DNA of 51,351 bases from Raillietiella orientalis (lineage: Eukaryota), in the NCBI GenBank assembly GCA_036172245.1, contig JAYWIR010000054.1:930001-981351 (forward strand), in the 5' to 3' direction. Positions within the stretch are counted from its first letter, which is position 1, and every line of letters starts with the position of its first letter. Made by a program: the position numbers and the translations under genes. This document shows, one piece after another, positions 5,226 through 51,351 of this stretch. The notes below the pieces were generated by a model. That model made no database searches. It was not told the origin of the DNA and worked only from the letters and a program-made list of their open reading frames with translations.

Positions 5226-5444
5226 TTCCTTCCCTTACCCTCCCAACTTTTCTTTTCTTTTTTGTTTTTTTTTTTTGTTTTTCCCCCTTCCACCTGCTGC
5301 GGTGGTGGACCGTACCGGTCTGCGAACCGGTGACCCGGAAGGCTGTGTGTTTCTTCGTGCGTGGCTGGTGCAATGGTCGAGCCACTGCATGTCTTTGTAA
5401 ATGTTTGTTTTATAATAAACGCCTCGGCGAAATCCGGGTGAAAA

Positions 5445-5617
5445 TCAAACGCCTTGCGGAGATCGAACGCGACCGCCAATGCACCCTGCGATTCCTTAGT
5501 CCGAATGCAGCGACGGCTAGCGTCGGCAGCCGGAGATGCGGTTGCCTGGCTATCGTGCGCCACGCAACGTTGGAGCTCGAGCCACGTGCGCTCGAAGAAC
5601 AGGTTCGTCTCCATGGA
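5445..5617 (-). mobile_element. RT fragment of a host element, ending at DLRKAFD where A1 is inserted
   Basis: METNLFFERTWLELQ...GALAVAFDLRKAFD on the minus strand. Confidence 0.85.
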
Positions 5618-5715
5618 CCATCTGCAGTCGCTCGCGGACTGGGACGACTTGAAGAGCTCAGTCCGAGAGTTCTGTGACCAGTTTCCACTCCATCAACTTC
5701 CTCCAGGTTTCGGGG
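5618..5715 (+). mobile_element. APE-RT linker fragment of family F, ending at PPGFG
   Basis: HLQSLADWDDLKSSVREFCDQFPLHQLPPGFG, nearly the same as 35299-35395. Confidence 0.85.
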
Positions 5716-6750
5716 ATGCCACCCGGATACGCTGGTACATTTATCAAAAACATTTCAGCAGTCAATACAGAACGTGGTACAAGGCCCCACTGACGGCCAA
5801 GGAATACCGGAACTGCCGGGACACCGGGACGCAGCCCGGTGTGGCTCTCCTCGGCAGTGGAGGGGGATGGGGAAGGAAAAAAATTAAATTAAAGAGAAAA
5901 ACAAACCACAAAAAAAGATTGGAGGGCCGGGAAGGGATCACAGAAAACCGCTGGGAGGGCCCTTGCTTTGCAGGATGCCTTCTAGTTCCAGGCCGCCACG
6001 ATACCACGAATGCAGCAAAGTGCTGCCAGGGCTGCGGCTGGAATAAGGGCGTTTCGCACGAAGACAAGACTGTAGACACATCCAACATTGCCACCATCCG
6101 GTATTGCAAGGGCCGTTTTAAGACGATACCAAAGAATCCGGACGGCAGAGCATTCAACTAAGAGGTGGGGGAGCGACTCCCGCTCCCCACTCTTGGTACA
6201 CGCAGGATTTACTCTTCCCCGCGTCCAGTGGAAGCAGCGCGCGTTGCAGGGTAGACCTCAATGCAGTCACAGAAGCGTCAATTCGTGCCACTTCAGGGGA
6301 AGAATCCTGGATCCAAGTAAAACCGGGTGCCATTTCAGGTTATTCAATCGAATGCCGAGCAGCTCGCCCTATCTTCTTAATCCACGCGGCTGGAGACTAG
6401 GGGTCGTAGCGTCTGTCAACACTCCCATGGCACAGACGCTCGCCATCTTCTCTCTGCCTGAGATACGGCAGCAGAATTGCTACCTCGGCTTTCGTCTTTC
6501 GTGGAGAGCCCTTTGGAAGAAGGGCATCGCCGTAGCAAGGGGTGTCCCTTCCGCCCACGTGCAACTCGGTGGAAATTCAAGAATTTTACGCGGAGTTCGG
6601 CGGGCGTAAGAGCTGTTCATACGCATTCTTTGGTTGCAGCCAGAGCAAGCCATCCATAAGTTCTTGTGTGTGTGGAATTGCAGCCGTTCGAAGGCAGAAT
6701 TGCCTGAAGTCGCCGCAACACTTTCGACGGGAAGCGTGTGACCCACGTCT
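5716..6750 (-). mobile_element. 5'-truncated family B element (ORF2 C-terminus + 3' UTR)
   Basis: Closely similar to 40986-42000. Carries a Cys/His finger region and a 3' terminal hairpin at 5716-5745. Confidence 0.9.
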
Positions 6751-9294: not shown

Positions 9295-10400
9295 ATCTCA
9301 TGGACTTCGGTTGCGGTGATCACGTGGATCTTCTGCACGAATGCAGGTTCTAATTTCTGCAGGCTTTGGGCAGTATCTCGTCTGTTGGAATCGTTGTGCA
9401 GCCTGTTAACGTTCCAGGAGGCCACACGGATCCCATAGCGATAGGTGTGTTCACTTGTTATGCCTGGGAACATGGCGGAGCGGCTATCGCCACGTGTAGG
9501 AGAGGGACGCTAGACTGGGTGGCGTTTTGCGTTCCTGCTTTCCCTCCTCCATACGCGGGACGCAGTTGGCACCTTCTTTGCGGCAGATTTCTCCGCACGC
9601 TGTTTTTCAGGTTGTGTGGAGCGCTTTTTCTCGTGCTTTGCGGACGCGATGCGAAGTATTGCGTTTGCGGATTCCCTACGGTTGTGGTCATTGCGCTGCA
9701 TGGTTTGCACTGAACGCTCAGGTGCACCTTCTTGAGGTGGCGCGATGGATTGCAGAATTTACTGTATTTAGGCTTTTTGACATGCGAAAGTTCGACATTT
9801 CCACCAGCGACCGCTATTTTGTGGAAAACTTGCTGCTTTCCCGGGCAGAGATTCGCGCGCATGCAAGGTCCCGTTGTAGTTTCGCATGCTTCACAAACGA
9901 AGAAGGCTAGGAGTACTGCGCATGAACCGCGCCGCGCTGTTTGAATACGGCGCGAAGTTCTGCCCTCTCTATACGCGCTGTGACACCTAATAGCGGACCA
10001 CAATGCTGTGGTGCACCGTAATAGGAAGAAGACTGCGCTTTCCCATGGTAACGGGGGTTTTCAGCATCCGCTGAGCTAAATCTGTCTCTTTGCAGTATAC
10101 TTCCACCAATTTTCACCCTTCGCATGCTCATCGCGCCCAGTTGTTCCTCCGGCACGTTGATAGCAAGCAAAGGCTTCGAAAAGGTGTAAGCACGCTGCGG
10201 AAAAAACAAGTAGCCCATCTTGTAGAGCAACATGTGGTTGAGCTGCCATTCACTTACGCAATGAATTTTGACGCGACTGCAGGTATAGTCGCCGCACCAC
10301 GTCTCTCGAAGCTCAAGATGCCGCGGGGACCGATTCGGTAAACGGCTGTTGCCACCTCCATCGCCTCTGACGACCACGTCGCAGCCTGGCACTCACTAAT
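9295..10400 (-). mobile_element. Degenerate element H: ORF1 remnant and start of the APE domain
   Basis: IRVASWNVN...VQKIHVITATEVHEI (APE). KPKYSKFCNPSRHLKK (decayed zinc knuckle). YKMGYLF. Confidence 0.75.
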
Positions 10401-10950
10401 GGTCCCGTCAGGAGTTCCTGCCTTATCCACAGTCCCACTGAACTCAACGCACTGAAGAAAGGGATCACTGCACCGCGACGGACCAAGAAAACACGTCTAT
10501 TCTGCGAAACCAAAGCGTTCGACTGCATCAAAGAGGAGTACCTCCTGAAGCATTCTGGACTCTCGAGATTCGAGACGGTCTTCCTGTCTTCTCTGCGCTC
10601 TAGTTGGCAATTCGCGATAGTAAACATTTTTTTTAGCGGCACGCGCGTGTACGGTGTGCGGGTTCGTCGTGGCAAAGTGATACACCTAGTGAGCAGGAGG
10701 AATAAGTAGGATGCCCTTCACGTCACCCGCTTCCTGCAGATATCGTCGAGGTAGCTCTGCCTAGAAAGGGACGTGAAGGAGCTCTCCGACATCCTGCAAC
10801 TAAAGCAAAAGCCTCACCCACCACGAAATGTGATCCCTTTCCGTCCCACAAGCTAATCTCGTTTTGGTCAACTTTTATTTTTATTATTTCCTTTTTTATC
10901 TAGTTTTGTTTTATCCATCTTCTTCTTCTTAGGCTCGATAAGCCTCGCTG
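10400..10950 (+). mobile_element. Degenerate ORF2 3' fragment with T-rich UTR
   Basis: GTGAAGGAGCTCTCCGACATCCTGCAA...TGTGATCCCTTTCC matches ORF2 ends of other copies; a T-rich tract follows. Confidence 0.6.
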
Positions 10951-30780: not shown

Positions 30781-31090
30781 GCTGAAAGAGATACAGCATA
30801 ACGCGTAGCGGCTAGGTATGTCCACTGATCCTGGACGATGCGGCCCACCTTTGCCGTGGTCGCACGCGTTTTTGGTGAGCTCCAGCAAGCGTAACCAAAA
30901 GAAGTTTTTGTGAGTGTGGAACTGCGGACGCTGAAGGGCAGAAATGTCTGAAGACGCCGCAGCACCAGCGACGGGCCCAGGTGCGTCGGGAGAGCCCTGG
31001 ACTCTCCAGTGACCGGGGGGAGGGAAGCCGGGAAGAAGACGCGGCGTCCGGAGCCTTTGCGGTGGAAGTCGATTTGCGTAAAGCTTTCGA
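30780..31090 (+). mobile_element. RT fragment of a host element ending at DLRKAFD
   Basis: GAFAVEVDLRKAFD ends at the junction with A3. The left boundary is uncertain. Confidence 0.7.
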
Positions 31091-32570
31091 TTTTCACCCG
31101 GCTTTTAACGGGTCGTTTATTGAAAATAAACTCTATAGTGAAAATATTAATGGCTGTAGCAATGCTCCAGCCACAAGCGAAGAACCACGGAGCCTGCCAA
31201 TTCACCGGTTCCCAGACCGGTACGGTCCACCAAGGCAGCAGGGAAAGGAAAAAAAAAACTAAACAAAAAGAAACAAAGGGTGTGAGGGAACGGAAAGGGA
31301 TCGCTGATGCTGATGGGGCCGCATCATCACTCTCAGGATGCAGGAAAGCTCTTGTTTGATTTGAACATCCAGGTGACTCCATCGCGACGCCCTCCTCAGG
31401 AATTAGGAGGTGCACTGGATGGCATCCTGATTGCTTGGTCCTCCTGTCGCCGTGCTCCATGCGGTGACAATCCCACGAAGGCAGCACAAGGCTGCTATCG
31501 AGGACGCTGGCCGAAGGGCGTCGGCAACGAAGAAGGCTTTTAGGGCGTCCCTGATGTTGCCGCAAGAGATACCGATGGCCGCGGCAAAGCGGAACCAAAG
31601 GGGCCGAAGGGCAACACAATCCACAAGCAGGTGGGGGAGGGACTCCCGTTCCCCACACCTGACGCAATTGGGGTCCACCGCTCCCCAGGTCCAGTAGTGT
31701 CGGCAGGCGTTGCAGGGGAGTCCGCAGTGCTGCAACAGGAGAGCCGACTCCTGTTATTTTAAGGGGAGGGTGGAGGTGTTCATTAGTACCGAGGGCCACT
31801 TCAAACGTTCAATGGGAACGTCGAGCAGCGCGCCCCAGCCCAGAAGTCCATAGGGAGGCGTACTCGGGGTCGCAGCGTCAGTCAGCTGACCCGTCTTCCA
31901 CTCTCCTATTTTCTACTCCTTCCCGGAGATTGTAACTGCAACCTCCCACTTCGCCGCAACATCGCTGTTCAGATCTTCCATCAAGTAGGGCAGCGCAGCA
32001 GCTAGGGGAGTTCTTCCTGCCCACGCTCTCTTCTTTGGATCCTCCAGGATCTTACGGAGCGTGCAACTTCTGTAACCCCCAAACAGGAACCTTCGTTCCT
32101 GTTGGGAGCGTTGCATGCCGAACTGTCCCCACGTGCGAACGGTTTCCTGCAACCAGGCACTACCGTTCGCAAGGCGACAGGTGATTTGTCCAAAGTATCT
32201 TCGTGTCAGCGCAGCCACCCTCCGTAGCTGAAGTCCGCATCGGTTGAAGCGGCGACAAAGTGCAAGAGAGGACGTCAGTCCCGTGATGCTGGTGGGTTGC
32301 TGGAGAATGAGACCTGCAGAAACGCACCAACAGGTGCACCACAACTCCGGAACAAGTGCCAACATTCGGAACGGGAGCTGAAGTTCCAGCCGTTCCAATG
32401 TCAGGACGCCGATTCCACCGTCCCGACGCGGAGCGCACAAGTCCTTTAAGCGGACTCGGGCCCTCCCGTTGTCCCAGAGGGCGATACGGAGGAGGTCTTT
32501 CGTCCGCTTTTTTATCCTCTCTGTGGGGGGGCAAACAAAAAGCAGGTGGCGGAGGAGAGGAGCCCCTCAT
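31091..32570 (-). mobile_element. 5'-truncated family A copy A3
   Basis: MQRSQQERRFLFGG, NCVRCGERESLPHLL; ends CCGGGTGAAAA on the minus strand. Confidence 0.9.
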
Positions 32571-34015: not shown

Positions 34016-35395
34016 CAACCCGCCGCCGCGCGAACGCCGACGCCGCAACAAATTCGCGAGCCCAGCGTGAGTAGCGACGACCGGGACTTCAATAAGGAGG
34101 CGGAAGAGTTAGCAGCCATGCTCCAGCAACCTCCCAAGGCCCAGGAGAAGGCCTTGAGGCGTCCGGCTGAGGCGAAAGGACCGGAGACTTCCGAGTCCAA
34201 AGCCGAAGCCGGCAACGCTCCGGCAGTCGCTCTCCCGAAGCGCAAAGCGGGCCGCAAGGTAGGCAACCCGCGGCGCTCCGCACCTCCACCGGCGGAGGAG
34301 GAAATGCGGTCGGACCACGACGACGGGGAGGCGATGTCCGCGAGGTCTCGCTACTCCTCGCCGGAGACGTCCCTGGCCAAGCAGGATCCTCCAACCACCA
34401 CCACAACCACCGACGGACCGCCTCCTTGCGAGCAACAGCCCGTCGCAATGGATACACAACTCCCGCCTGCTGAACAGCAGGCGGAGGACGGTACGCTTAC
34501 ACCATAAACCCACCAACGCGTGGACTCTCCTCCTGCCGGCGACTGCGCGTAATCTGTTGGAACGTCAACGGGTTGCGCGACGACGGCAAGAGGAGAGAAG
34601 TGCCCGCCAGCCTGCGGGACTTTGACCTGGCGCTTCTGCAGGAGACGCACGTGCTCCGCGCAGGGGAGGCCCAGGAAATCGAACGGATCGCAGGCGGGCG
34701 GCTCGTATACCAAAAAGGGAGAGACCGCACCCGCAGTGTGGGTTTCATGCTGAAGCCAGCCGTCGTTATTGCGCTGCGCGACGTACACTTCGACGGGGAA
34801 GGTCAAATCGGGCAGCTTGTTGCCAAGTGGTCCGACGCGATCGACCTCGTCGTGACCAACGTGTACGCGCCCGGCACGAGCCACAGGCGCGGGGAACGCA
34901 GTTGGTTCTTCGAAGGCCTGCGGCGAAATTGGCTGGCCGAAGCAGACATGCGAAACGCGCACCTCATTGCCGGGGAATTTAACGTCTGCCTGCTGGCAGG
35001 TGCGCCCGACATTCGCGCACAGCTGGTCAACGAGATGTGCGCTGCCATGCACGCGCGCAACTTGTTGGCCGGTATCGCCGGGACGGAGACGAGGATCGAA
35101 CACATGTTCCTCGTCAACAACCTGTGTTCGCGGGTGGGAAATCAAGGGGCAATGCCATCCGTACTTTCCGACCATCCCCGGTTCGTGGTAGAAATATACC
35201 CGCGCGGTAGAGGTCCACCCTCCACAGCGTGGAGTTTGCCAGGGGACTGGTTGCGCCTCGCAGGAGCGCAACATCTTTGCTCGTTCCTGCAAGGCTTCCA
35301 TCTGTAGTCGCTCGCGGACTGGGACGACTTGAAGAGCTCAGTTCGCGAGTTCTGCGACCAGTCTCCCCTGAACCGTCTCCCTCCAGGATTCGGCG
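34016..35395 (+). mobile_element. Element F: ORF1 tail (to 34507) and APE domain, interrupted at PPGFG
   Basis: KEAEELAA, WNVNG, LLQETH, NVYAP, AGEFN, SDH motifs. Confidence 0.9.
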
Positions 35396-35602
35396 TTGTC
35401 ACCTGGGTTCGCCCGGGGCGTTTATTATAAACTCCACATGCGTGGTACAAGGCCCCACCACGGCCGTAAACACAGGACCTGTCGAGACACCGATACGCAG
35501 CCCGGCGTGGCACTCCCCTACAGCGAAAGGGGATGAGGGGAAAAAACAAAAAGAAGAATAAAGAAATAAAAAACAAAAAGAAGTTGGAGGGCAGGGAAGG
35601 GA

Positions 35603-38600
35603 TCACTCGTCGCTGTGGGGAGGGCCCATCCGTCGAAAGAAGCCCTCGAGCTGTGTCTGCATATTCCACAGTTGGGGCCATTCGGCAGCTCTTCGCAAGA
35701 AGCGTTGGGCATACGGGATGACATCCCTCGCCTGTGGTCCCACTCCTTCGTTGTTGGCGTCGCTCCATGCCGCCACGATGCCACGCAAGAACCACGAGGC
35801 TGCGATGGCTGCGGCTGGCTGCAGTGCGTCCTTCACGAAGAGGGGCCGAAGAACGTCTCTGAAGGTGCTGTTTGTAGGGAGCTCGAGGGTCGTTCCGAAC
35901 CCTTTCCAAAGGGGTCGGAGGGCAGCACAATCCACAATAAGGTGGGGGAGAGACTCCCGCTCCCCGCACCTGGCACACGCAGGATCCACAGCTCCCCTCG
36001 TCCAGTGGAAGCGGCGCGCGTTGCAGGGTAGACCCCAGTGCAAGAAGAGCAACGCCGACTCTTGCCACATGAGGGGCAGGATCCTGGATTCCTTCATCAC
36101 CGGGGGCCACTCCAGCTCATCCCTGGGGATGGCGAGCAGCTCACTCCTTCTTAATAATCCTCGCGGCTAAACGCTCGGGGTCGTGGCGTCGGCCAGTTCC
36201 CCTGTTGTCCAGCCGCTGATCAACTTCTCGCGTCCCTCGATGCAGCAGGAGACTTGGCACCTTGGCGTCCGGCTGCTGTGAAGTGCCCTCCTCAGGAAGG
36301 GCAGCGCCCTAGCTAGGCAGTTCTTCTCTGCCCATGTGCATCTTGCTGGACTTTCCAGGATATTCAGCAGCGTGCAGCGGGCGTAGGGGCTGAATCGGAG
36401 ACGATTCCACGTTTCGTAGCACCTCTGGTTAACCGCTGCCCACGTTGCAATATTCTCCTCCAGCCAGGCGGGGGAGTTCGCGGGGAAGCAAACCATCCAG
36501 CTGTTCTCCTTGGCCAATGTTGCTATGCGCCCCAGCAGTAGGCCGCATCTACGCATCTTCCGGCCACGGCTCAGAAGAAAAGGCGCGAGTCCATCGCACC
36601 GGGACACACGGCTGGCCAGGAGGAAGGACGGAGTGCACCAAATGGTGTTCCACATCCTCGTTGCGATGGCGAGTGTTCGCCACTGCAGCTGCTTCTCCAC
36701 GCGCTCTAGCGTCAGGAGGCCAAGACGGTCGTCCCGACGCGGAGCGCACAAGTCCTTCAAAGGGACTCGGGGCCTCCCCTTGCCCCAAACGGCGATACGG
36801 AGGAGGTATTTTGTCCCCTTCTTGGATTCCACGGTTGGGGTGCAAACAAAATGCAAGGGGCGGAGGATGGGGGCCGCGAAGGCGTTCCGAACCGCGGCCT
36901 GTTCCGGCAAGTGAACCTTGCCTTCCAGGAACGGGCCGATCGCCGTCTCGACTCTTTAGGGGCAGCTGGACCACGCTTCCGCAGGGGAGTAATAGTCCAA
37001 CGGAACACCAAGGTACTTGAAACACCTCGCCTTACGGATCACCAGACGGACGCAGTCCTACTGCCCTGCCCACGCCGCACCCATTGGCACAACCGAAGTC
37101 TTCGCTCTGTTAACCTGCAGTCCGGTTTCGCGGCTGAGCAGATCGAAGTAGTCTCCGACCGCCTTCGCCGGGGTGGACATTCGCAACAAGAGCAGAAGAT
37201 CGTCGGCGTACGCTGCTACGGCGGGCGTGCCGGGGCACGAGCTCGGCAAGGGGGCCAAAGTCACCCTGTACGCTCTCAGGACCAGCTCAAAGTAGGTGCT
37301 GAAGAGCAGGGGGCTGAGGCTATCTCCCTGCCTTATGCCCCGCCGTTCCGGCACGCCATACACCTGGTGTCCACTGAAAGAAACGGTAATAATCGCATTC
37401 CGACAGCAAGAGCGCAGGTAGGAAATTAGGAAGGGTGGCAAGCCCATGCGATCCAGGAGCTCCAAGAGGAGTTCCTAGTCTACACAGTCGAATGCCTTGT
37501 GGAGATCGACTGCTAGCGCTAAGGCCCTCTTCCCCGCCCGGCGGTCCCTTCCCAGCCCAGCTGGCGGCCCCAATGTGAGGTTGTTGACTTTCCCTATCCC
37601 TTTCTTTTCTCTTCTCTGCAGGTGCACCCATGTGCTTGCGAAGAAGAGGTTGGCATCCATACTTCGCCCGGGAACCGCATAAGACTGCTCCGGGCTAATT
37701 ACGGATTCTGCCACCTGCCCCAAACGCGAAGCTCATAGCTTTGCTATTAACTTCGCGTTTGTATTCACGATCGTGATCGGACCCCAGTTCTTTAAATCCC
37801 TGAGGTCTCCCCCTTTCGGAAGGAGCCTCACTCTGGCTGACCGAAACGAGGCGGGAACATCGCCTTTGTCTCGGATCAGCCTGATCAACTTAAGCAACAG
37901 GGGTGCCAGCTCTTCCGCGAAGCTCTGAAAGAGCTCCGCGAACAAGCCGTCTTCCCCTGGAGCTTTACGCCTCTTGAGCCTTTTGATACCGGCAAGAATT
38001 TCGCCGGTGGTAAAAGGCTCGTCGAGGATTTCAATCTCCTCCTCCCCTATTGCCGGGGCGCCATCCGGAAGCAAGCGCCGAGAGGCGTTTCGATCCGGGG
38101 GCTCCCTGGCGTAGAGGGAGGAATAAAAACTCCGCACGAGATGCCGTACCGACGCCGAGGAAGAATATTCCCGGCCCTGGTCGTCCAGCAAGCTGGCCGA
38201 CTCGGATTGCCAGGCTTGGCGTTCGGACCCCGGGCGGTACTCGGACAGGCGACGGACATTAGGGTTTCTCTCGTACCTACGAGCCTGTAAATAGGCCCGA
38301 TGGTTGCGAGCATCCTCGCCGAATCAGGGGGCAGGTGATCCAGGGGGAACTGCTCACAGAACTCCCGGACCGATTCGTTAAAAAGGTCCCAGTCCTGGAG
38401 ATTCCGGAGCGTGACGCCTCTCAGGTATTCGCGAAGGTGTTCCTTCGCACCTGAGAGTCGCGTCCAGTCCCCCGGCAGACGCCAATCCCTGGATGGCGGA
38501 CCTTTGTCGCGAGGCCGCATCTCGAAAATTAACCGGGAATGGGCCGACAACGTCGACGCAACCCTCCCCCGTTTGCCGACCCGTGAACACAGGTCAGCGT

Positions 38601-39200
38601 CGAGGAAGACGTGGTTGATGCTGCGGACCATTCCCCTCGCACCCGCGAACAAGTTGCGCGCACGCATGGCGGCGCTTAACTCGTTCATCGAGTTCTCTTG
38701 TGTTTCTGGCTCACCTGTTAGCAGACGGAGATTGAAATCTCCCGCTATCATGCGAGCCTTCCGCACGTTCGTGCCCGCCAGCCAGTCGCGCTTCAGGGAT
38801 TTCAGCAGCCTGGTGCGGTGGCTGTATCCCTGTTTACCGCTGGGGGCGTACACATTGGTGACGATCAGTTCGATCGAGTCCGACCAGCTGAGAATCAGCT
38901 GACCGACCCGACCGTCGTGATCGAAGCGCACGCCCTTCACGGCAGCGTCGATGCCCGGCTTCACGAAGAACGCGACCCCGCAGGTGTTGCGGATACGCAT
39001 CGCCAATACAGCCGACCCCCCGCGATCGTCTCGATTTCTCGGGCGTCTGCCGCGGTGATCACGTGGATCTCCTGCAGCAGGGCCAGGTCGAGCTCACGCA
39101 GAGTTTCTGCCGTATCTCGCCTGTTACCGTCGTCGCGCAGCCCGTTGACGTTCTAACAGGCGGCGCGTATACGACGGCGACTGGCGAGCCCAGGTGTTAC
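35603..39200 (-). pseudogene. C ORF2 (APE-RT-Cys/His finger), several stops and frameshifts
   Basis: NVYAP, AGDFN, KAPGEDG, DLHKAFD, RQGDSLSP, YADD and CARCGERESLPHLIVDC spread over ORF pieces. Confidence 0.92.
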
Positions 39201-40878
39201 TCTTGGGGAGATTGCGATGCGGTGTCCACCACCTGTTGTTGCGGGACGCTAGGTGGAGGAGGAAGGTCAGGCGCTGCTTGCACCTGGTCCCCCTCCTCCA
39301 TGGGTAACGGCGCGTCGAGCGGGTCACCCTCAGGTGAGGTCGCGCCTCCCTGCTCACCCTTCTCCATGGGGGTGGCATACTCACCGGCTTCGGAGCGTGG
39401 GAGTTCCTTGTCGGGGATTCCCACGCTACCGCTACCTTCCTGCTTCTCCTCCTCGCTGGTAGAGGGGAGGCTCCTCCTGGGTTTCAGGGACTTGCGTCCC
39501 GACTTCCTGGGGGGTGCCTTCGAGGAGGAGGATGCACTTCCGACCCCCAGGTGCGACTCACCTGTGGGGGCCTTTTTCGCGTGAGCCGGCCTTCGCACGG
39601 CCTTGCGTGAGGGGTTCTCACGCTCCGCCAGCGTGGCCGCGAGCTCCTCCGCCACCTTTACGAATGCGGCGTCCTCTTTGTCGACCGGCGCGTCGCGCGG
39701 CTCACCCTCTGTTTGCACAGAGGGTTCGCCGTCGCGAACTTCGGGCGCGACGGAAACGGCGAGGGGAGGCTCGTCGCCCCGGGTGGCATCATCCGGAACG
39801 ACGAAACGTTGCAGTGCCACCGTGCACTCGCGTACGGTTTCCGAACGCGGCCCGGGTTTTTTGCCTTACCGGCCGGCTTCAATTTTTTCTCCTTTAAAGG
39901 AGCTTTCCTCTCTTTTCTGGCTGCTACAAGTTGCCAGCTCTCTTCACTTTCCGCCTCTTGGAATGGTTTATCCTCAGTCTTTTCTTTTGGAGGTTGAGGA
40001 TCTGGCAGCTTCAGCCAGCCAGCGTCCGCCTTAGGTCTTGTGACCTTTACTGCGCGTTTCCCCTGCGCCTTTTTCGCGGCAGGAGGAACCGGGGTGGGGC
40101 GTTTTGGGCACATACGTCGAACGTGGCGCTTCTCCCTGCACATGTGGCATTGGATGTTAGGACACCTCTTGCGAAGGTGTCCTACGGTATAGCAGTAGCC
40201 GCAATACCGGGGCTTTCCCACGTACCAGAGGTCCACGCTCTCTTGCGCGACCTCCAGCTTGTGGGGAATCCCACAGTCCTTACTCACGGTTACCCGCGCT
40301 GCAGCATTGCCTCCGGAATGGCTATTGAAGCCTTCAAAGATTGTTGGCTTAGACCACAGCGCGTGCACCTCGCCGAACTTCCGAAGTTCTTGTGCTACCG
40401 CAGAGCGAGCCATACGGCTCGTTATTCCAGTGAGATGGACCACCACGGAGCGTTCCATCGTCACCGGCAAGATCTTGCGGCCGTCGACGTTTAACGGGTT
40501 GGTGATTAGAGCCTGAGCCGAGGTGATCTGCTTGCACACCACCTCGACTCGCTGACCTCCGCTGGGAACGGAGAAACCGTCAAGATCTTGTTCTTTTACT
40601 CCGGCGTTTTGCAGCGCTTTCGAAAACGCGCGTGCCGATTTTCCTTCAAATAAGGGGCCTACCTGGTACATTAAGCTGGGCTTGTACCCAGCTGCCCGGT
40701 AAACCGCCATCTTGGCCACGGTTTCCGGGCTCGGCGCGGCCACCATGGCGCTCCAGCTCCTAGACTTATGCGGCGAGGGCGATTCCGGGGCGGACGCCCC
40801 TGATTCTGTAGGCTGTTGGAGTGGGCAAGCCTCCCACACACCTACCTCCATCGTGGTGACCTCAGGCATCGCTGCCAT
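39197..40878 (-). pseudogene. C ORF1 (two CCHC knuckles; frameshift near 39880)
   Basis: MAAMPEVTTMEV...CGYCYTVGHLRKRC..CHMCREKRHVRRMC; tail in ORF 39197..39820. Confidence 0.88.
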
Positions 40879-40985
40879 CGGACACCAACGATGTTCCACA
40901 CGAACACACACAAAGAAAAAGCCGCTTCCTGTCGACTCACTCGGGAGCGAAGGAAAAAGACGTATACTCGCCAAGGGATTCGGCG

Positions 40986-43096
40986 ATGCCACCCAGATAC
41001 GCCAAGACGTTTATTCAAAACATTTCAACAGTCAATACAGAACGTGGTACAAGGACCCACTGACGGCCACGCAATACCGGAACTGCCGGGACACCGGGAC
41101 GCAGCCCGTTGTGGCTCCCCTCGGCATTAAAGGGGGATGAGGGAGAAAACAAAAATAAAATAAAAGAGAAAAACAGACCACAAAAAAAGTTTGGAGGGCC
41201 GCGAAGGGATCACAGAAAACTGCTGGGAGCGCCTATCCTTTGCAGGATGCCTTCTGGTTCCATTTTCAGGTTTCCTAGATTGGGTCATCGGTAGCTCTCT
41301 GCAGGAAGCGAGAAGCATACTCGATGACGTCCTTCACGATGCAGTCTTCATCTTCGGCATCACTCCAGGCCGCATCGATACCACGAATGCAGCAAAGTGC
41401 TGCCAGGGCTGCAGCTGGACTAGGGGCGTCCCGCACGAAGACATGACTGGAGACATATCCAACATTGCCACCATCAGGTATTGCAAGGGCCCTTTTAAGA
41501 CGATACCCAAGAATCCGGACGGCAGGGCATTCAACTAAGAGGTGGGGGAGCGACTCTTGCTCCCCACACTTGGCACACGCAGGATTTACTCTTCCCCGCG
41601 TCCAGTGGTAGCGGCGCGCGTTGCAGGGTAGACCCCAATGCAGCCACAGAAGCGCCGATTCTTGCCACTTCAGGGGAAGAATCCTGGATCCAAGTAGAAC
41701 CGGGGGCCACTTCAGGTCATCCAATCGAATGCCGAGCAGCTGCCCCATCTTCTTAATCCACGCGGCTGGAGACTAGGGGTCGTTGCATCTGTCAACTCTC
41801 CCATGGTCCAGCCGCTCATCATCTTCTCTCTGCCTACGATACGGCAGCAGATTTGCCAATTTGGCTTCCGGCTTCAATGAAGCGTTCTTTGGAGGAAGGG
41901 CATCGTCGTAACAAGGGGTGTGCCTTCCGCCTACGTGCAACTCGGTGGAAATTCAAGAATTTCAAGAAGAGTTCGGCGGGCGTAAAAGCCGACTCGCAGG
42001 CAGTTCATCGGTCTTTGCACCTCTGGTTCTGCTTGGCCCAGGTGCCAGCAGTCTCTTCCAGACAAGTGGAGGAGTAGGCAGGGCCACAAACCATCCAGTC
42101 ATTCTCCTTTGCCAGGGTTGGCATGCGGCCGAGCATTAGACCGCATCTTCGAATCTTCCGGCCAGGGCACAGAAGAAACGATGCGAGTCCTTCGCAGCGG
42201 GACACACGCCTGGCCAGGAGGCGGAACGGAATGCACCAAGCGGTGCTCCACATCTTCGCTGCGATAGCGAGGGTCCGCCATCGCAGCTGGATTTTTTACG
42301 CGCTCCAGCGTGAGGATGCTGAGACCGCCGTCATGATGCGGAACGCACAAGTCCTTCAAAGGGACTCGGGGCCTCCCCTTGCCCAAAAGAGCTATGCGAA
42401 GGAGGTCCTTCGTCCGCTTTTTTGATTCCACGGGGGCGGGGCGAACAAAAAGCAAGGAGCGGAGAATGCGGGCCACGAAGGCGTTCCAAACCGCGGCCCG
42501 TTCCGGCAAGTGGAACTTGCCTTCCAGGAACGGGCTGATCGCCGTCTCGACTTTTTGGAGGCAGCTGGACCACGCTTCCGCAGGGGAGAAGTTCCCTAAC
42601 AACACACCGAGGTACTTGATGCACCTCACCGTGGGGATCCCCAGACGGACCCAGTCATGCTGTCCTGCCCACGACGCTCCAACTGGCAACACTGACGACT
42701 TCGCGCTGTTAACCTGTAATCCGGCACCACGGCTAAGCAGGTCGAAGAAATTTCCGACCGCCTTCGTCGGGGTGGACATAGGTAAGAGGACAGAAGATCG
42801 TCGGCACACGCCGCTACCGATGGCGTGCCGGGGCACGAGCTTGGTAAGGGGGCCAAAGTAACCCTGTACGCTCTCAGCATTAATTCAGCGTAGGTGCTAA
42901 AAAGCAGGGGGCTGAGGCTGTCGCCTTGCCTTCTGCATCGCCTCACCGGCACGCCATACACCTTTTGTCCACTGAAAGTAATCGAGATTGTCGCGTTCCG
43001 CCAGCAAGAGCGCAGGTAGGTAATCAAGGAGGGTGGGAAGCCCATGCGTCCCAGGAGCTCCAAGAGGAGTTCCTGTTCAACACAGTCGACCGCCTT
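40986..43096 (-). mobile_element. Element B, 3' half (RT from D-CVEQELLLELL to the 3' end)
   Basis: RQGDSLSP, CADD, KYLG, CAKCGEQESLPHLLVEC; terminal hairpin at 40990-41015. Confidence 0.9.
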
Positions 43097-43193
43097 TTGC
43101 GCGCTAGGGCGGACGTGTTTTCTCGGTGCTCCTCGTGCCAGGAAGTCTCCCCCAGTGCAAGCGTCGTATGGTTCGGTGGTCGATCAGGCAGCG

Positions 43194-44863
43194 ATGCCTG
43201 AGGCGTCCACCAGGGATAGCCAGGAGGCAGCGGCAACGCCGCCCCCAGAGGCGATGGAGAGCCAGAGGGCAGGGGAAACGTCGCCCCCAGAGGCGATGGA
43301 GGTGAAAGCATCCGCCCCCACAGAATCGGTCTCCGCTGCAGCGCGGGCGTAAAGCGCCGTTGTGTCGGCGCCATCGCCTGCAGCCGCGGCGGAATTGTCG
43401 GCCTATGTGGAGGAGGGGTACAACCCCTCATTGTTCTACAAGGTAGGCAATTTATATTCTTTAGAGAGCGCGCGCGCCTTATGGAAGGGCATGCGCGCTC
43501 TCGGTGTCAAAGAGGAGGAGCTCAGCGCTATGACCATCCGCAGCGGGGGTCAGTACTTTGAGGTCATCTGCAAACATGCAGAGCTGGCCCAACGACTGCT
43601 TAAAACTCCTGTTGTGATGGAGACGCGCAGGCTCCTCCCTACTACGGCGGACCGCAGCATGGTGGTCCACCTGTTAGGCGTAACCGTGCGAATGCGCAAA
43701 GAACAGGTTCGCGCCGCTTTGGAACAGTTCGGAACGGTCCACGCGCAGTGGACGAAAGTAAGTCCTTCTAAGGACTACACGGAGCTGCAGCACGGCCTCA
43801 CTGCTGCGCGCGTGACCGTTCGGGAAGGCTGCACTGTTCCCCACAAACTAGTGGTCGAAGGCGAAACCGTCGACCTCTGGTGTGTCGGGAAGCCGAAATA
43901 CTGTGGCTTCTGCAATACGTCGGGCCACCTCAAAAAGAGGTGTCCCAATGTGCAGTGCCAAGTATGCGGCACAATGGGCCACACGAGGGAGATGTGCCCA
44001 AAAGCAGCAGTGCGGGTGGTTTCCGAAAGAAACCTTAAAAAACGCGCCCGGCTTCTGCAGAAAAGGCTGGCGGCGAAAGCTGCCGCGAAGGCTGTGCCAA
44101 TCGCGCCCAAGACCCAGGCCGCACCCGTGACCCCGGCGACCAACGCCGAAAAAGTTGAGGGAGACGCCCAGGAGACTGGGTGGCAAGTGGCAGCGGACAA
44201 AAAATCAAAGAAGGAGAGGAGGATGGAATAGAAAATCGCCTACCAACAGAAGAAGAAAGAGCAGGGTAGCGCGATAATTAAAAAGTGCAGCGTCGTTGTC
44301 GAACGCGTTCTCGATGTTGCCGAACGCTGCCGGAAAGAACTCGCCGCTACCGACGACCTCCCCTCTGTTGACACAGTCAACAGCGAGGGGAGCGAGCCGG
44401 CGGCGGCGTCCGTCATCGACACCACCATCGATGACGTAGCCTTCGCGCGAGCCGCGGAGGAGCTGGCAGCTTCGTTGCAGCCAGAACCCTCCAAGGCTGG
44501 CAAGAAGGCCGTAAGGCGTCCGGCCTCCCCTCAAGAGTACCCACTTCCGACCCCGAGGTGAAGGCCGGAAGCGCAGCCTCCGTTTCCACGGCACCGCGCA
44601 AGAAGGCTGGACGTAAGTCCACAAAGCCAAGGAAGCTCGATCCCCCCGTCGAAGGAGAAGATATGGCTGCCGCAAGCGAGGGTGCCATGAGCGTGGGAAA
44701 CTCTCCGGACCCGTCGCCCGAGAGACTTCTACGCGCGGACACGGAGGGGATGGAGGGGGTGAAGGAGGAGGAGGCCGAACAGGTGCCTCAGGTGCCTGAG
44801 AAGACCGAAACCCCCATGGACATCCCGCCCGCCTCGCAAGAGGACGGCTCCCCCACACCTTAA
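43194..44863 (+). pseudogene. A2 ORF1 (two CCHC knuckles; stops at 43350 and 44229, frameshift near 44530)
   Basis: CGFCNTSGHLKKRC..CQVCGTMGHTREMC. Confidence 0.88.
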
Positions 44864-44877
44864 TCTTCCCAGCAGTA

Positions 44878-47800
44878 ATGCCGGGAATCTCCTACCGCCG
44901 TCGTCAGCGCATCGCCGTTTGGAACGTGAACGGTATGACAGACGCCGGCAGGAGACGAGACATGGCCGCCCTTCTGGAGTCCTACGACCTTGCGCTGCTG
45001 CAGGAGATCCACGTGATCTCTGCAGAACAAGCGCAAGAGATCGAACGGATCTCCGGATGGCGGCTATGGTACAGGTGTGGGAGACCGAAAAGTTGCGGTG
45101 TCGCCTACCTGCTTCGGCCAGCCGCCGAAGACGCGGCTCGGGGCGTGCAGTTCGACGATCACGGTCGTGTCGGCCAGCTGACTCTCAGGTGGTCCGACTC
45201 GATCGACCTGATCGTCACGAACGTGTACGCACCGAGCGGCAAGGACCTGATGAACAGGAGGGCGAAAAAAGAGTTTTTCCTTGCCCTCCGGCGAGACTGG
45301 CTGACCGAAGCAAGCGTGCGGAATGCCCATCTGGTTGCAGGAGATTTCAACGTTCGCCTGAAACCAGATGAGCAGAATCCCGACCGTGATCTGGTCAACG
45401 AGGTGTGCATGGCGGTGCACACCTGTAATCTGTTGGCTAGTGCACCGGGGATGGAAGACAACATGGACCACGTGTTTCTTGACGAGCACCTGTGCCCTCG
45501 CGTAGGCAGGCGCGGCAAGTAACCGTGCGAGCTGTCCGACAATCGCCCGCTGGTCCTCGAGATCCATTCGCGTGACAGGGGCCCCCCTCGTCAGCGTGGC
45601 GTCTCCCAGGAAACTGTCTGAAGCTCCCGGACGCGGCGGAACATCTCCGCACGTTCATACGGAGCTTCAGGCTGCGGAAACTCCAGGATTGGGACCGCTT
45701 CAAGCGGTCGGTCCAGGAGTTCGGCGACCAGTTCCCTCTGTACCCCCTACCTACGGGTTTTGGGACCGAGGTCCGTAACGAATGAGCCTAAGTGCAGACC
45801 CGTCGTTACGCCAGGACCCCCGACATCCGCAGGCTAACGGAATACAAAGCGGGAGCCGAGAGGCAAGCCTGGCAGTCCGGATCCGCCAGCTTACTGGACG
45901 ATCAAGGCCAGAAGCACTCGGCACCTAACCAAATCCGCGGCCAGCTGCGGAGTTACTACTCCTCCCTGTATGCCAGGGCACCTCCGTAGAGGAACTTCTC
46001 ACGACTCCTGCTTCCGGAAGGCGCTCCAGCGATCGGGGATGAGCAGAGAAAGACCCTCGACGAGCCTTTCACGATGGACGAGATCCTCTCGGCCATCGGA
46101 AAGCTCAAGATGCGAAAGGCTCCAGGGAAGGACGACCTGCCCGCGGAGTTTTATCAAGCTTTCGCGGCTGAGCTAACCCCCCTGGTACAGAAACTTACCA
46201 TGCTCATACACGAAACAGGTGACGTTCCCGCCTCGTTTCGTTCGGCAAAAATGCGTCTCCTAACTAAGGGAGGAGATCTGAGGAGCATGAACAACAGGGG
46301 TCCCATCAAAATTGTGAATGCGGACACCAAGTTGATAGCCAAGATGTGGGCAGAGCGTCTGGGACGGGTTGCCAACATCTTCATCAGCCCTGAACAGACA
46401 TATGCTGTTCCCGGGCGAAGCATGGAGGCGAACCTGTTCCACGCTTCCACCTGGCCAGAGCTCCAACATGAAAGGAGCTTGGTGCGCAGCCGAAATTCCG
46501 TTGCGTGCGCCGGCAAGGGGTTTGATGGTCGGGTGGGGGAGGGAGCCCTTGCGGTCGCAATCTACTTGCGAAGAGCATTCGATTGGGTCGACCAGAATCT
46601 CCTTCTGGAGCTTCTGGAACGCTTGGGCTTCCCGGCCTCCTTAGTGACCTATCTGCGTTCTTGCTGGCGCGACGCGCTCATCAATGTTACTTTCAGAGGG
46701 CAGATCGTGCACGGCGTGCAGGTGCGGCGTGGGATCCGGCAGGGAGACAGCCTGAGCCCCTAGCTCTTCAGTACCTACTTTGAGTTGGTACTAAGAGCAT
46801 ACAGGTGAACTCTTACACACCTGCCGCACTACTGTGCCGGTACGCCGGCCGTTTCCGGATACCCGGACGGCCTTCTGCTGCTGCTCCCTATGTCCAACCC
46901 GGCTGCGGTGGTCGAGGAGTTCTTCGACCTGCTGCATCGGGGAACGGGACTTACGGTGAACAGGGCGAAGTCGTCCGTGATGCCAGTTGGTGCGTCCTGA
47001 GCAGGGCAGCAGGACTGGGTCCGTTTTGGGATCCTCACGGTGAGGTACTTCAAGTTCCTTGGTGTGCCTTTGGGGGACTACTCCCCTGCGGAAGCGTGGT
47101 CCGGCTTCCTCCAAATAGTAAAAACGGCGATGGACCCGTTCCGAGGCGGCAGGTCTTTCCGGCCTGAACGGGCCGCGGTTTGGAACACGTTCTCGCCTCC
47201 TCTCCTCCGCCTTCTGCTTTTCGTTTGCCCCCCCACAGAGAGAATTAAAAAGCGGACAAAGGACCTTCTCCGTATCTCCCTTTGGGGCAACGGGAGGGGC
47301 CCGATTCCGCTTAAAGTACTTGTGGGCTTTTCGTCGGGATGGTGGTCTGGGCCTCCTGACGCTGGAGCGGCTGGAGATTCAGCTCCAGTTCCGATTGTCG
47401 GCACTCGTTCCAGGGTTGTGATGCACCTGCTGGTGCGTCCTTGCACGTCTCCTTCTCCAGCAAGAAACCGGCAAGACGGGACTGACGTCGTTTCTTTCAC
47501 TACGTCGCCGCGTCAACCGATGCGGACTTCAGCTACGGAGGGTGGCTGCGCTGTATCGCAAAAACCCAGGATTGTTCACCTGTCGCCCTTTGAACGGTAG
47601 TGTCTGGTTGCAGGAAACCGTTCGAACGTGGGGACAGTTCGGCATGCAACGCTCCCAACAGGAACGACGTTTTCTGTTTGGGGGTTACAGAAGCTGCACG
47701 CTCCGGGATATCCTGGAGGATCCAAAGTAGAGAGCGTGGGCAGGAAGAACCCCACTCGTTGCTGCGCTGCCCTACTTGATGGAAGATCTGGACAGCGATG

Positions 47801-48459
47801 TTGCGTCGAAGTGGGTGGTTACAGTAACAATCTCCGGAAAGGAGAAGAAGATAGGAGAGTGGAAGATGGGCCAGTTATCAGACGCTGCGACCCCGAGTAT
47901 GCCTCCCAATGGACTTCTGGGCTGGGGCGCGCTGCTGGATGTTCCCATTGAACATTTGAAGTGGCCCCCGGTGCTCATGAACACTTTCGACTTCCCCTTA
48001 AAATGGCAGGAGTCGGCTCTCCTGTTGCAGCACTGGGGACTCCCCTGCAACGCCCGCCGACACCATTGGACCTGGGGAGCGGTGGACCCCAATTGCTTCA
48101 GGTGTGGGGAACGGGAGTCCCTCCCCCACCTGCTAGTGTATTGTGTTGCCCTTCGGCCCCTTTGGTTTCTCTTTGCTGCGGCCATCGAAATCCCCTGCGG
48201 CAACCCCAGAAACGCACTGAAAGCCCTCTTGGTTGCCGACGCCCTTCTGCCCGCGGCCTCGTTAGCAGATTTGAGCAGTCTACGCGGGATCGTCACCGCT
48301 TGGAGCAAGGCTACGGGAGGACAACGCGACCGAGGTGCCATCCAGCCAGCCTCCCAGTTCCTGAGGAGGGCGTCTTGATGGCCCCACCTGGAACCAGGAA
48401 TACAGAAGGAGCTTGCCGGCATCCTGCAAAGAATGCAACGGCCCCACCAGCAACTGTGA
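44878..48459 (+). pseudogene. A2 ORF2 (APE-RT-Cys/His finger), heavily disrupted
   Basis: MPGISYRRRQRIAVWNVNG...; colinear with A1 ORF2; YADD decayed to YPDG. Confidence 0.92.
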
Positions 48460-48676
48460 TCCCTTCCCTTACCCTCCCAACTTTTCTTTTCTTTTTTGTT
48501 TTGTTTTTGTTTTTCCCCCTTCCCCCTGCTGCCGTGGTTGACCGTGCCGGTCTGCGAACCGGTGATCCGGCATGCTCTGTGTTTATTCGTGCGTGGCTGG
48601 AGCAATGGTCCAGCCACCGCACGTCTTTGTAAAAGTTTATTTCACAATAAACGCCCCGGCGAAATCCGGGTGAAAA

Positions 48677-49515
48677 TCGAATGCCTTATGGAGGTCGACT
48701 GCGATCGCTAAGGCCCCCTTCCCCGCATGAGGGTCCCTATTTTGTACCACTGGCGGCCCCGAAGTAGGGTTGCAAATTTTCCCTTTCTCTTCTTTCTTAC
48801 TTCGCTGTGCGTGCATCCATGTGCTCGGGAAGAAGAGGTTGTCCTCCATACTTCGCCCGGGAACAGCGTAAGTCTGCTGCGAGCTAATTACGGAATTGGA
48901 AACCTGCCCCAATCGCGACGCTTACAGCCCGGGAATCAACTTGGCGTACGTGTTCACAATCGTGATCGGACGCCAGTTGCAAAGTTTCCAGAGGTCTCCT
49001 TCTTTCGTGAGGAGCCTCACCCTGGCTGACCGAAACGAGGAAGAAACATCGCCTTCGTCTCTGATTCGCCTTGTCAACTCGAGCACCAGGGAAGTCAGCT
49101 ATTTCGCGAAACTCTAGAAGAACTCCGCGGGCAAACTGTCATCCCCTGGCGCCTTACGCCTCTTGAGCCTTTTGATACCGTCGAGAATTTCACCGGTCGC
49201 GAAAGGCTCATCGAGGCTTTATCTCTCCTCGTCCCCTATCTCCACGGAACCACTCATGAGCAATCGCCGCGAGGCGTCTTGTTCGGGTGGTGTTTTGGCG
49301 TTAAGGAAGGAATAAAAACACCGCACAAGATTCCGTACCGCAGACGGGGACGAACGTTCCCAGCCCAGGTCATCCAGCATGCTGTCTGACCCGGATTGCA
49401 AGGCTTTTCGCTGGGCTCCGGCGCGGTATTAGGCCAGGCGACAGACATTGGGGTTCCTCTCGTGACGACGAGCGTGCAAATACGCGCGTTCGTTGCGAGC
49501 TTCTCCGCCGAATCC
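48677..49515 (-). mobile_element. Element B, middle part (linker GFG to DLHKAFD)
   Basis: GFGGEARNERAYL...KAPGDD...QTYAVPGRSMEDNLFF...GALAIAVDLHKAFD. Confidence 0.9.
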
Positions 49516-49617
49516 CCGCTGTGGAGAGCGGACGTGCTTTTCCTGCGCTATGCCTGCGTGGCAAAGCGAGTGTTTTCTCTTCTTAAGTGATTTGTGCGTG
49601 CACATCGTCGGTGTCCG

Positions 49618-51351
49618 ATGGCAGCGTTGCCAGAGGACACCGCGATGGAAGTAGGCGTGATGGAGGCTTGTTCGTCCCCACAGCCTACTGGATCAGGGGC
49701 ATCCGCCCCTGAATCGTCCCCGGCGACGCCGAGGTCCTGGAGCGCCATGGTGGCCGCGCCTAGCGTGGAAGCCATGGCCGAGATGGAAGCAAACAAGAAA
49801 GCGGGGTATAAACCCTCGCTAGTCTACAAGGTAGGCAACCTTTTCGATGGGAGAACTGCACGCGCCTTTACGAAGGCGCTGCAGGACGCCAATATTTTTG
49901 AAAAAGATCTCGACGGCCTCTGCGTCCTCAGCGGCGGGCAGCGGGTCGAGGTGGTATGCAAGGTTATCACCTTGGCCCGACACCTGATCACCGACCCGCT
50001 GATCGTTGATGGTCGGAAGATCTTGCCGATAACGATGGACCGCTCGGTGGTGGTCCATCTCACTGGGATCTCAAGTCGCATGACGAGGTCAGCGGTTCGA
50101 GAACAGCTTCAAAAGCACGGACAAGTGCACGCGTTGTGGCCGAAGTCCACGATTTTCCAACGCTACAATAGCCTTTTCGGAGGTCAAGCTGCGGCGCGTA
50201 TCACGGTAAAAGAGGGTGGTGCGCTTCCCCATAAGCTGGAGGTCTGCCAAGAAGCGGTGGACCTCTGGTACGTGGGAAAACGCCAATTTTGTGGCTACTG
50301 CAATGCAGTAGGACATCTACGAAAAAGGTGCCCGAACATTGTGTGCCACCTATGCGGCGAAAAGTGTCACGTTCGGCGCGTGTGCCCCAAGCGCCCCACC
50401 CCGGTGCCCCCTGCCGCCAAAAAGGCGCAGGGAAAACGTGGAAAGCTGGTAGAAAGACCAGCTCACGAAAATGGCCGTTCCCAACTGCCAGCCTCCCTTC
50501 CTCCCGTACAGACGTCGGAGGAAATAGCTCCCGTGGACGCGGGAATGGAGGAGGGTTGACAGCTGGTTCAGGCCAGAAGAGAGAAAAAAAAGAAAGTGAT
50601 GATAGAAGAAAATTCGGAAAAGAAAACTGCCGGCAACAAGAAAAAAGCCGCTCCGCTTTCAAAAAAAAAACTCCGCGAATGCTCGGTGGCACTGGAACGC
50701 TTAGCCGTTCCTGCCGAGTCCGCCCGCGGCAATGTTCGCGGAACAGCTGATGCGGACGCGATGAATACTCGCGTGGACGAGCCCAATCTACGTGTAGAGG
50801 GTGAGACGCGAGACTCGCGCGCCGACAGCCAGGACGCCGCGCTCGATAAAGTCGCGGAGGAGCCCGCGGCAACGTTCGGCGTCAACGATGACGCCGCGCT
50901 CGATAAGGTCGCGGAGCAGCCCGCGGCAACGGTCGCCGCTGGCGAAGACGCGGCCTTCGAGAAAGCGGCGGAGGAGCTCGCAGCAACGCTCGCCGAGCGC
51001 GAAACCCCGTCGCGCAAGGGCGTACGCAGGTCGGCTCCGACGAAGAAGGCACCCGCAGGTGAGTGCGACCTGGGGGCCGGTAGCGGATCCTCCTCCTCGG
51101 AGGCACCCCCCAGGAAGTCGGGACGCAAGTCCCAGAAACCCAGGAGGCGCCTCCCCTCCACCAGCGAGGAGGAGAAACCAGAAGGAAGCGGCAGCGTGGG
51201 AATCCCGTAGTGGGAATACCCACGCCCGGAAGCCGTCGAGTCGGCCACCCCCATGGAGGAGGGAGAGCAGGGCGGTGAAGTCCTCCCTGCAGTCGCGAAA
51301 CCTGAGCAGCCCGAACCCATGGAGGAAGGCGACCAGGTAGGCGCGACTCCA
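49618..51351 (+). pseudogene. D ORF1 (two CCHC knuckles; in-frame stops at 50557 and 51208)
   Basis: MAALPEDTAMEV...CGYCNAVGHLRKRC..CHLCGEKCHVRRVC. Confidence 0.88.
50833..50988 (+). repeat. In-frame 57-bp tandem repeat x3 (DAALDKVAEEPAAT-type)
   Basis: Units start at 50833, 50890 and 50947. Confidence 0.9.

Follow-up and report, generated by a model that had tools for sequence, protein, structure and literature searches.

The window analysed here is a stretch of 51,351 bases with 0 N from Raillietiella orientalis (contig JAYWIR010000054.1, positions 930,001 to 981,351). Retroelement fragments of related kinds are densely packed at 1–11 kb and 26.6–51.3 kb, where the GC content is about 55–64% and nesting is found throughout, while the stretch at 12–26 kb has a GC content of about 34–46% and is without related retroelement fragments. 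Within the packed regions, two families of long interspersed nuclear elements (LINEs), here designated A and B, end next to conserved coding motifs in the second open reading frame (ORF2) of other LINEs. Family A is found at the codons of a K-A-F-D motif of the reverse transcriptase (RT), and family B at those of a P-P-x-G-F motif located about 58 residues after the apurinic/apyrimidinic endonuclease (APE), between APE and RT. The coordinates of the copies and of their hosts are collected in Table 1.

The elements are evidently APE-type non-LTR (long terminal repeat) LINEs with ORF1, APE and RT. The frames of two family A copies, A1 and A3, match the Pfam families PF03372 (endonuclease/exonuclease/phosphatase, Exo_endo_phos; E-values of 1e-9 and 2e-12) and PF00078 (RVT_1; E-value of 8e-17), and all of these scores exceed the curated Pfam cut-offs; the zf-CCHC (zinc-knuckle) match in the ORF1 of A3, at 18.1 bits, is under the cut-off of 20.8. 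A comparison with solved structures revealed human LINE-1 ORF2p as the best match of the RT (E-value of 2e-33), followed by R2 proteins at 3e-12 or weaker, and the APE query retrieved L1 endonuclease chains and cellular AP endonucleases, with no chain named R1 or TRAS endonuclease among the 51 APE structure matches. Protein relatives found in databases carry APE, RVT_1 and zf-RVT. One of them (P0001), encoded by a metagenome contig, is close, with 67% identity and an uninterrupted RT with KAFDC, and all other protein relatives have 28% identity or less; neither a clade nor a taxon could be derived from the cluster names of the nearest relatives or from the protein atlas. On the basis of sequence similarity rather than phylogeny, the elements are assigned to the L1 group. 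Hallmarks of APE-type LINEs are also present, namely the 11-bp duplication at A3 and the 5' truncation of A1, A2 and B3 at differing points, and no LTR-like repeat was found in a self-comparison of the window.

Family A insertions at the K-A-F-D codons

The tails of family A copies read ...AATAAACGCC(C/T)CGGCGAAATCCGGGTGAAAA, that of A3 being AATAAACGCCCCGGCGAAATCCGGGTGAAAA and that of A2 a diverged version. At the A1 junction (5444|5445), ...CCGGGTGAAAA is followed by TCAAACGCCTT, at the A3 junction (48676|48677) by TCGAATGCCTT, and at the A2 junction, on the minus strand and reading downwards from 31091|31090, by TCGAAAGCTTT. Read on the host strand, the A1, A3 and A2 junctions are AAGGCGTTTGA, AAGGCATTCGA and AAAGCTTTCGA, each encoding K-A-F-D. 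An earlier sequence-only reading of this stretch had stated that all three family A 3' ends abut K-A-F-D codons in antisense orientation, and the sequence at the three junctions is as it described. The host codons preceding the motif are of the type A-x-x-x-D-L-(R/H): the fragment hosting A1 (H1) reads ..GALAVAFDLRKAFD (ALAVAFDLR-KAFD), and the fragment hosting A2 (H2) reads ..GAFAVEVDLRKAFD (AFAVEVDLR-KAFD).

The 11-mer AARGCNTTYGA occurs six times in the window versus 0.99 occurrences expected, and none of 100 shuffles reached six. All six occurrences sit at the same RT motif, and four of them are insertion junctions. In three of these junctions the A tail, read as its reverse complement, comes directly after the motif; in the fourth (10512–10522), what comes directly before the motif is the reverse-complemented 5' end of a divergent element, designated F. 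The other two are uninterrupted (3339–3349, in A1 itself, and 37488–37498, in the family B element B1), in agreement with the empty sites proposed previously.

The F junction (10511|10512) is thus the fourth KAFD junction, and its geometry is as at the 5' junction of A3; the head of F (...AGACGTGTTTTCTTGG) resembles that of A3 (...GGACGTGTTTTCTCGG). The identity of the F ORF1 to that of family A is 28–30%, and that of the B1 ORF1 is 42%. The KAFD site is used by two rather different lineages, A and F. The base after the motif is C in the three targets with a known downstream base (B1, B2 and the host of F), and after family A's own motif it is A in A1 (K-A-F-E) and T in A3. Family A may be self-protected through a changed base at the cleavage position, the numbers being too small for a claim.

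The full-length copy A3 lies within a host preserved on both sides. To the left of A3, 41043–43099 aligns with B1 over 2072 nt at an identity of 75.4%. To the right, 48677–49514 aligns with B1 over 838 nt at 77.2%, the match beginning exactly at 48677; the two halves overlap on intact B1 at 37488–37501. As judged from this alignment, A3 splits a B-family element, B2, exactly at its KAFD site. A3 is surrounded by an 11-bp duplication, TCGACCGCCTT (43086–43096) versus TCGAATGCCTT (48677–48687), with two adjacent mismatches, and on the host strand left of A3 the frame resumes as D-C-V-E-Q-E-L-L-L-E. Both features, claimed for this insertion from the letters of the sequence, were recovered at the full copy (43097–48676). 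B2 was struck twice, by A3 at KAFD and by another element, E, at P-P-x-G-F.

The independence of the A junctions was assessed by comparing the copies with their flanks. The A1–A3 pair is 88.7% identical (133/150) in the terminal 150 nt of the elements, the A1–A2 pair 78.2% (115/147) and the A3–A2 pair 76.5% (114/149). In the first 150 nt of the flank, A1 and A3 are 57.2% identical (83/145), and the A3 flank and the empty B1 site are 74.0% identical (111/150); this comparison gave no usable alignment of the A1–A2 and A3–A2 flanks, with 3 and 2 letters aligned, respectively. A MAFFT alignment of broken and intact sites does align these flanks, and in it every KAFD breakpoint falls in the same columns. 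Over 4363 nt, A1 and A3 have an identity of 91.5%, and a stricter-scoring alignment stops exactly at 5444/48676, while looser BLAST extended the A alignments about 40 nt beyond the tails. The likeness over these 40 nt represents conserved RT coding sequence that precedes KAFD, and the uninterrupted sites share it too. The value of 57.2% for the A1 and A3 flanks upholds the earlier statement that the host flanks differ among the A copies and do not derive from one duplicated junction.

Evidence from outside the window was provided by X1, a public DNA run kept as contigs and the only run with related sequence (9% of the sampled words were related). Its contigs were mapped to 42900–48900 at a likeness of at least 85%, and 252 were placed. 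At least two contigs join 43085 to 48677 and leave out 5591 nt, the combined length of the 5580-nt element and one 11-nt copy of the duplication; they represent the uninterrupted form of the host. At least one contig joins 43096 to 48182 via six extra letters, which corresponds to a further A copy, truncated at its 5' end, in this very host position. As X1 is a single run and the latter joint is thin, the run is taken as supporting evidence and not as proof. A metagenome scan for an 18-nt stretch of the A tail gave 43 loci, of which 0/43 were similar to A3 or B1 by blastn, and these are chance matches. Together, both A3 junctions, the fourth KAFD junction and the X1 contigs sustain the central proposal of the sequence-only reading, namely that family A targets KAFD codons in antisense orientation and splits the RT of its relatives.

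Family B and the orientation of nesting

The nesting is wider than had been noted before, and involves a second family, a second motif and an antisense orientation in all counted cases. Family B tails end in ...GGGTGGCAT, or ...GGTGACAA in B1, with CGCCGAATCC or CCCCGAAACC as the next letters. Read on the host strand, the target is GGATTCGGCG or GGTTTCGGGG, corresponding to the G-F codons of P-P-x-G-F. The consensus GGWTTCGGSG occurs five times in the window versus 0.51 occurrences expected, and none of 100 shuffles reached five. Three of the five copies are followed by a B tail (5706–5715, B3; 35386–35395, B1; 40976–40985, B2), and the copy in B2 at 49506–49515, on the minus strand, has the 5' end of E directly before it. 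At 40976–40985, B1 and B2 form a head-to-tail tandem across a duplicated (regenerated) target. Broken and intact family B sites are colinear in the alignment. Judged by eye, the hosts of B1 and B3 (D and H3) match at roughly 80% of 76 aligned positions, and the identity between B1 and B3 themselves is 66.8–76.5% across the aligned pieces; the hosts are therefore more alike than the elements inserted into them, which argues against a duplicated junction for family B.

Two further observations concern this family. An exact GGATTCGGCG is present at 32798–32807 (+), uninterrupted, at a frame break in element C (RT residues ~625 to 631), and this copy lies outside the P-P-x-G-F context. From junction to junction, A3 and B1 both span exactly 5580 bp, although they are only about 68% identical in ORF2 and have different targets.

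In total, 12 termini, corresponding to 11 events, adjoin a recognisable coding fragment; all of them are antisense to the fragment, and none is on the same strand. Seven are tails (A1, A2, A3, B1, B3, J at ~28834 and M at 9296) and five are heads (A3, F, E, K at ~26836 and G at 1068). Left out of this count were the B2 tail and the B1 head, which lie on either side of the target copy, the C tail at 34016, the A2 head, which stands head to head with C, and the approximate H1/H3 and H2/J boundaries.

Two of the counted tails lie in host APE coding regions in antisense orientation: M (+) ends at 9296|9297, after ..EVHEI, and J (−) at ~28833|28834, after ..IAGARL. These ends, each seen once, may represent additional family-specific targets. 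The two were considered as one third shared site, which was rejected, the ends being 9 codons apart in APE. The 5' end of K was not counted as a family B event, as it lies about 18 codons past the B motif, and no duplication was found flanking K. At 32562–32574, A2 (−, from RT residue ~536) meets C (+, from RT residue ~553) head to head, and this meeting at a near-equal ORF2 position may reflect a target deletion at a truncated insertion. K (26.8–28.8 kb), H2 and C (32.6–34.0 kb) could be one element on the plus strand, with deletions at J and A2.

Table 1. Positions of family A, B and related elements, their hosts and target copies in the window
Feature	Position	Strand	Description
A1	1069..5444	+	family A copy without ORF1; 91.5% identity to A3
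A1 APE	1692-2291	+	
A1 RT	2355-4772	+	open frame of 805 codons
A1 own uninterrupted motif	3339..3349	+	AAAGCATTCGA, then A (K-A-F-E)
H1	5445..5620	-	RT fragment, residues ~270-332; ends AAGGCGTTTGA against A1 tail
H3	~5622-5715	+	host of B3
B3	5716..6615	-	5'-truncated family B copy; 3' end against GGTTTCGGGG (5706-5715) of H3
F	9297..10511	-	divergent element: 5' untranslated region, ORF1, APE start; 5' end abuts KAFD 11-mer
F APE start	~9297-9410	-	
F ORF1	9561-10239	-	
Host of F	10512..10676	+	AAAGCGTTCGA, then CTGCATC...; encodes KAFDCIKEEYLLK, RT residues 329-383
H2	30960..31090	+	RT fragment (..AFAVEVDLRKAFD); ends AAAGCTTTCGA against A2 tail
A2	31091..32562	-	5'-truncated family A copy, 3' 1.5 kb; 83% identity to A3
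D	34522..35395	+	host of B1: APE and ORF2 residues to P-P-G-F; ends GGATTCGGCG at 35386-35395
B1	35396..40975	-	full-length family B, 5580 bp; KAFD site 37488-37498 uninterrupted; 3' end against GGATTCGGCG of D
Target copy	40976..40985	+	GGATTCGGCG between B1 5' end and B2 3' end
B2 3' part	40986..43096	-	host of A3, RT residue ~333 to element 3' end
Left target-site duplication copy	43086..43096	-	host strand AAGGCGGTCGA, then CTGTGTTGAACAG encoding D-C-V-E-Q
A3	43097..48676	+	full-length family A element, 5580 bp; broken reading frames
A3 ORF1	43362-44231	+	weak CCHC match
A3 APE	44926-45525	+	
A3 RT	45591-48003	+	
Right target-site duplication copy	48677..48687	-	host strand AAGGCATTCGA (K-A-F-D)
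B2 5' part	48677..49515	-	host of A3, RT residues ~57-332; ends at B motif where E begins
E	49516..51351	+	B-like, runs off window; 5' end against GGATTCGGCG of B2 (49506-49515, -)

Several features were observed besides the insertion sites. The 5' heads at 43097–43130, 10480–10511 (−), 49516–49550, 40940–40975 (−) and 1040–1068 (−) share GGACGTG and a T-rich run, and this block, common to the heads of otherwise divergent families, may be a shared transcription start or promoter element. A weak zf-RVT match (E-value of 0.014, below the cut-off) is located at 11113–11505 (+), immediately beyond the nested island, and this fragment resembles the zinc-binding C-terminal part of another L1-type ORF2. 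The GC step between the LINE island and the intervening DNA is sharp. The AT-rich, LINE-free middle of the window contains a pair of inverted segments of about 1.8 kb each (16696–18480 and 22044–23823) with 75.5% identity, which carry similar ORFs of 191 and 187 codons; neither ORF matches any Pfam family.

Proposed mechanism and alternative explanations

We consider it likely that the elements of this island are sequence-specific L1-group APE LINEs, the targets of which are ORF2 coding motifs of sibling LINEs, in which they nest in antisense orientation. The junctions imply that, for A and F, the host sense strand is nicked right after ...TTYGA, and they show this strand to be the primer, ending in ...AARGCNTTYGA-3' for A and in ...GGWTTCGGSG-3' for B. 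The specific nick would be made by the element's own APE, as in other target-specific APE LINEs. Reverse transcription would then be primed by the free 3' OH at the terminus of the A RNA (...CCGGGUGAAAA), beginning at the last A of ...GGGUGAAAA, and annealing of read-through RNA carrying the complementary UCGAANGCCUU would possibly assist. The junctions also show a staggered second nick, 11 bp away in the case of A, where it leaves the 11-bp target-site duplication, and about 10 bp away for B; the orientation is fixed, and A always lies antisense to the host RT, which it splits. The AAUAAA about 20 nt upstream and a conserved CCCGG-loop-CCGGG might serve 3' end formation or recognition. Because each new copy brings fresh ORF2 sequence, the island would grow by nesting and its targets would be self-renewing.

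A 3'-terminal 5-bp stem was predicted in seven tails. Compensatory changes were found in 0 of 5 pairs, and the 3'-terminal hairpin is not claimed as a structure.

The extension of the BLAST alignments of A1/A3 and A2 about 40 nt past the tail could be taken to mean that the "host" sequence is a part of the element, or that a single ancestral junction was spread by segmental duplication. However, the identity between A1 and A3 falls from 88.7% to 57.2% across the element end, the stricter match stops at 5444, and the residual likeness corresponds to a conserved RT block that is present at uninterrupted sites. Moreover, A3 is flanked on both sides by a B element with a target-site duplication, and the X1 contigs show the uninterrupted host form at this position, so we regard such an origin of the junctions as very improbable. 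It is harder still to believe that the elements have no sequence specificity, and that a preference for LINE-rich heterochromatin, or survival in it, brought them to shared positions by coincidence. The transposable element island with about 60% GC does lie beside DNA with about 40% GC, but the four A/F junctions fall at one nucleotide, as do the four B junctions, with a single orientation and elements of about 5.6 kb, and a coincidence at the level of single nucleotides contradicts a regional preference.

Another explanation accepts the junctions as real and attributes the specificity mainly to base-pairing of read-through A transcripts (UCGAANGCCUU) to the nicked target. As every A copy seen sits in the motif, any RNA reading through its end would carry the complement of the primer strand AAGGCNTTCGA-3', and in other LINEs integration at a specific target can be strengthened when the element is transcribed together with that target (PMC4494074). 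On the other hand, AATAAA about 20 nt before the end of the tail suggests that most transcripts stop at the element terminus, and base-pairing would still require a nick at the exact position; we find this explanation rather unlikely. Transduction of an older junction should also be considered for A1 and A2, because H1 (~175 nt) and H2 (~130 nt) are short. In that case, only A3 would be a primary insertion, and H1 and H2 would have been carried from earlier source loci by 3' transduction; both fragments end at further junctions, and the other host halves are absent at the 5' junctions of A1 and A2. However, the sequences of H1, H2 and the B2 flank all differ, so that even transduced pieces would record three separate KAFD insertions, and truncated hosts are expected in a nest whose hosts are themselves truncated insertions. 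We judge this scenario to have a small probability.

A number of points weigh against target-specific nesting as we propose it. We infer the cleavage specificity of the endonuclease from the junctions, and the sample is small, with four KAFD and four family B junctions in one window; the evidence base comprises this 51-kb window and one run of short contigs. The two copies of the A3 duplication differ at two adjacent bases, and H1 and H2 extend for only ~175 and ~130 nt before the next junction. The X1 joint between 43096 and 48182 is thin, with a depth of 2.7 and 27 letters on the short side in a single run. The J, M and K termini fall outside both defined sites, and the flank of the C tail (34017–34521) could not be assigned. 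The F ORF1 is less A-like than that of B, so the choice of target does not simply follow family resemblance. There was no intact ORF2 among the copies seen, all of which have broken frames.

If target-specific nesting is extended to the whole island, one could tentatively hypothesise a guild of LINE lineages living only in one another, in which each endonuclease evolved for a different ORF2 block of the relatives (A and F would cut KAFD, B and E would cut P-P-x-G-F, and J and M perhaps sites in APE), although we would rate this as less probable than not. In such a guild, the target would be maintained by the victims' need for a working enzyme, each insertion would kill a competitor, and the island would grow autonomously, like the Zepp-type putative centromeric clusters.

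Comparison with known target-specific and nested LINEs

The comparisons below draw on the accessible portions of the cited papers. Sequence-specific APE-type elements fall in the Tx1 and R1 clades, and the known LINE targets are ribosomal DNA, small nuclear RNA (snRNA) and tRNA genes, spliced-leader exons, microsatellites, telomeres and a DNA transposon (PMC4640811). In the Tx1 clade, the target is the DNA transposon Tx1D for Tx1, U2 snRNA genes for Keno and microsatellites for Kibi and Koshi (PMC4494074). The elements described here share several traits with this clade: they are LINEs that encode an APE-type endonuclease, they belong to the L1 group, and they hit multicopy sequence with nucleotide precision. 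Tx1 itself already targets another transposon, and the ORF1 of the clade has zinc-knuckle features; sequence-specific insertion, which is common but not strictly defining in the Tx1 clade, is seen for both A and B. Unlike in the Tx1 clade, the target here is a conserved coding motif of sibling LINEs, which is entered in antisense orientation, and at least two families at one locus use two different motifs of ORF2.

Nested clusters are also formed by the L1-type LINEs Zepp in Chlorella and Coccomyxa and ZeppL in Chlamydomonas (PMC3446292, PMC8226300, PMC9940879). As in the present locus, their copies insert into existing copies and build nested clusters in GC-rich transposable element islands. 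However, the Zepp and ZeppL arrays consist mostly of 3' ends of one family, whereas here several families interlock at defined codons, and the available accounts of Zepp and ZeppL give neither a nucleotide-level target nor an orientation rule. The GC content is reported as 53% in Coccomyxa and 61% in Zepp (PMC3446292, PMC8226300, PMC9940879), and the background here is about 40%.

With R1/R2 and SART/TRAS, the elements share a strict target, a fixed orientation and tandem insertions at regenerated targets, and in those systems, too, read-through RNA possibly aids precise priming (PMC4494074). The targets of R1/R2 and SART/TRAS are multicopy genes or repeats of the host, while here they are other retrotransposons. 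Arrays of Cnl1 in Cryptococcus show a preference for GC-rich sequence and variable duplications, and the portions of the accounts available to us describe no RT-codon target for them. Searches of open-access text turned up no LINE for which the target is the RT codons of other LINEs.

A LINE that targets the catalytic-motif codons of other LINEs would pursue a strategy of its own: mutations that remove the target would be likely to harm the RT of the victim, and each insertion would be harmless to the host genome, lethal to the competing element and a source of new targets. Such elements would supply naturally evolved APE endonucleases with specificities of 10–11 bp and a tractable case of competition between transposons. 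They would also offer a nucleotide-level mechanism for self-nesting LINE islands, such as the Zepp clusters that are thought to mark green-algal centromeres. Target-specific APE LINEs that strike transposons are already known, and we file the locus described here under this kind, with the RT and other ORF2 codons of sibling LINEs as a new target.

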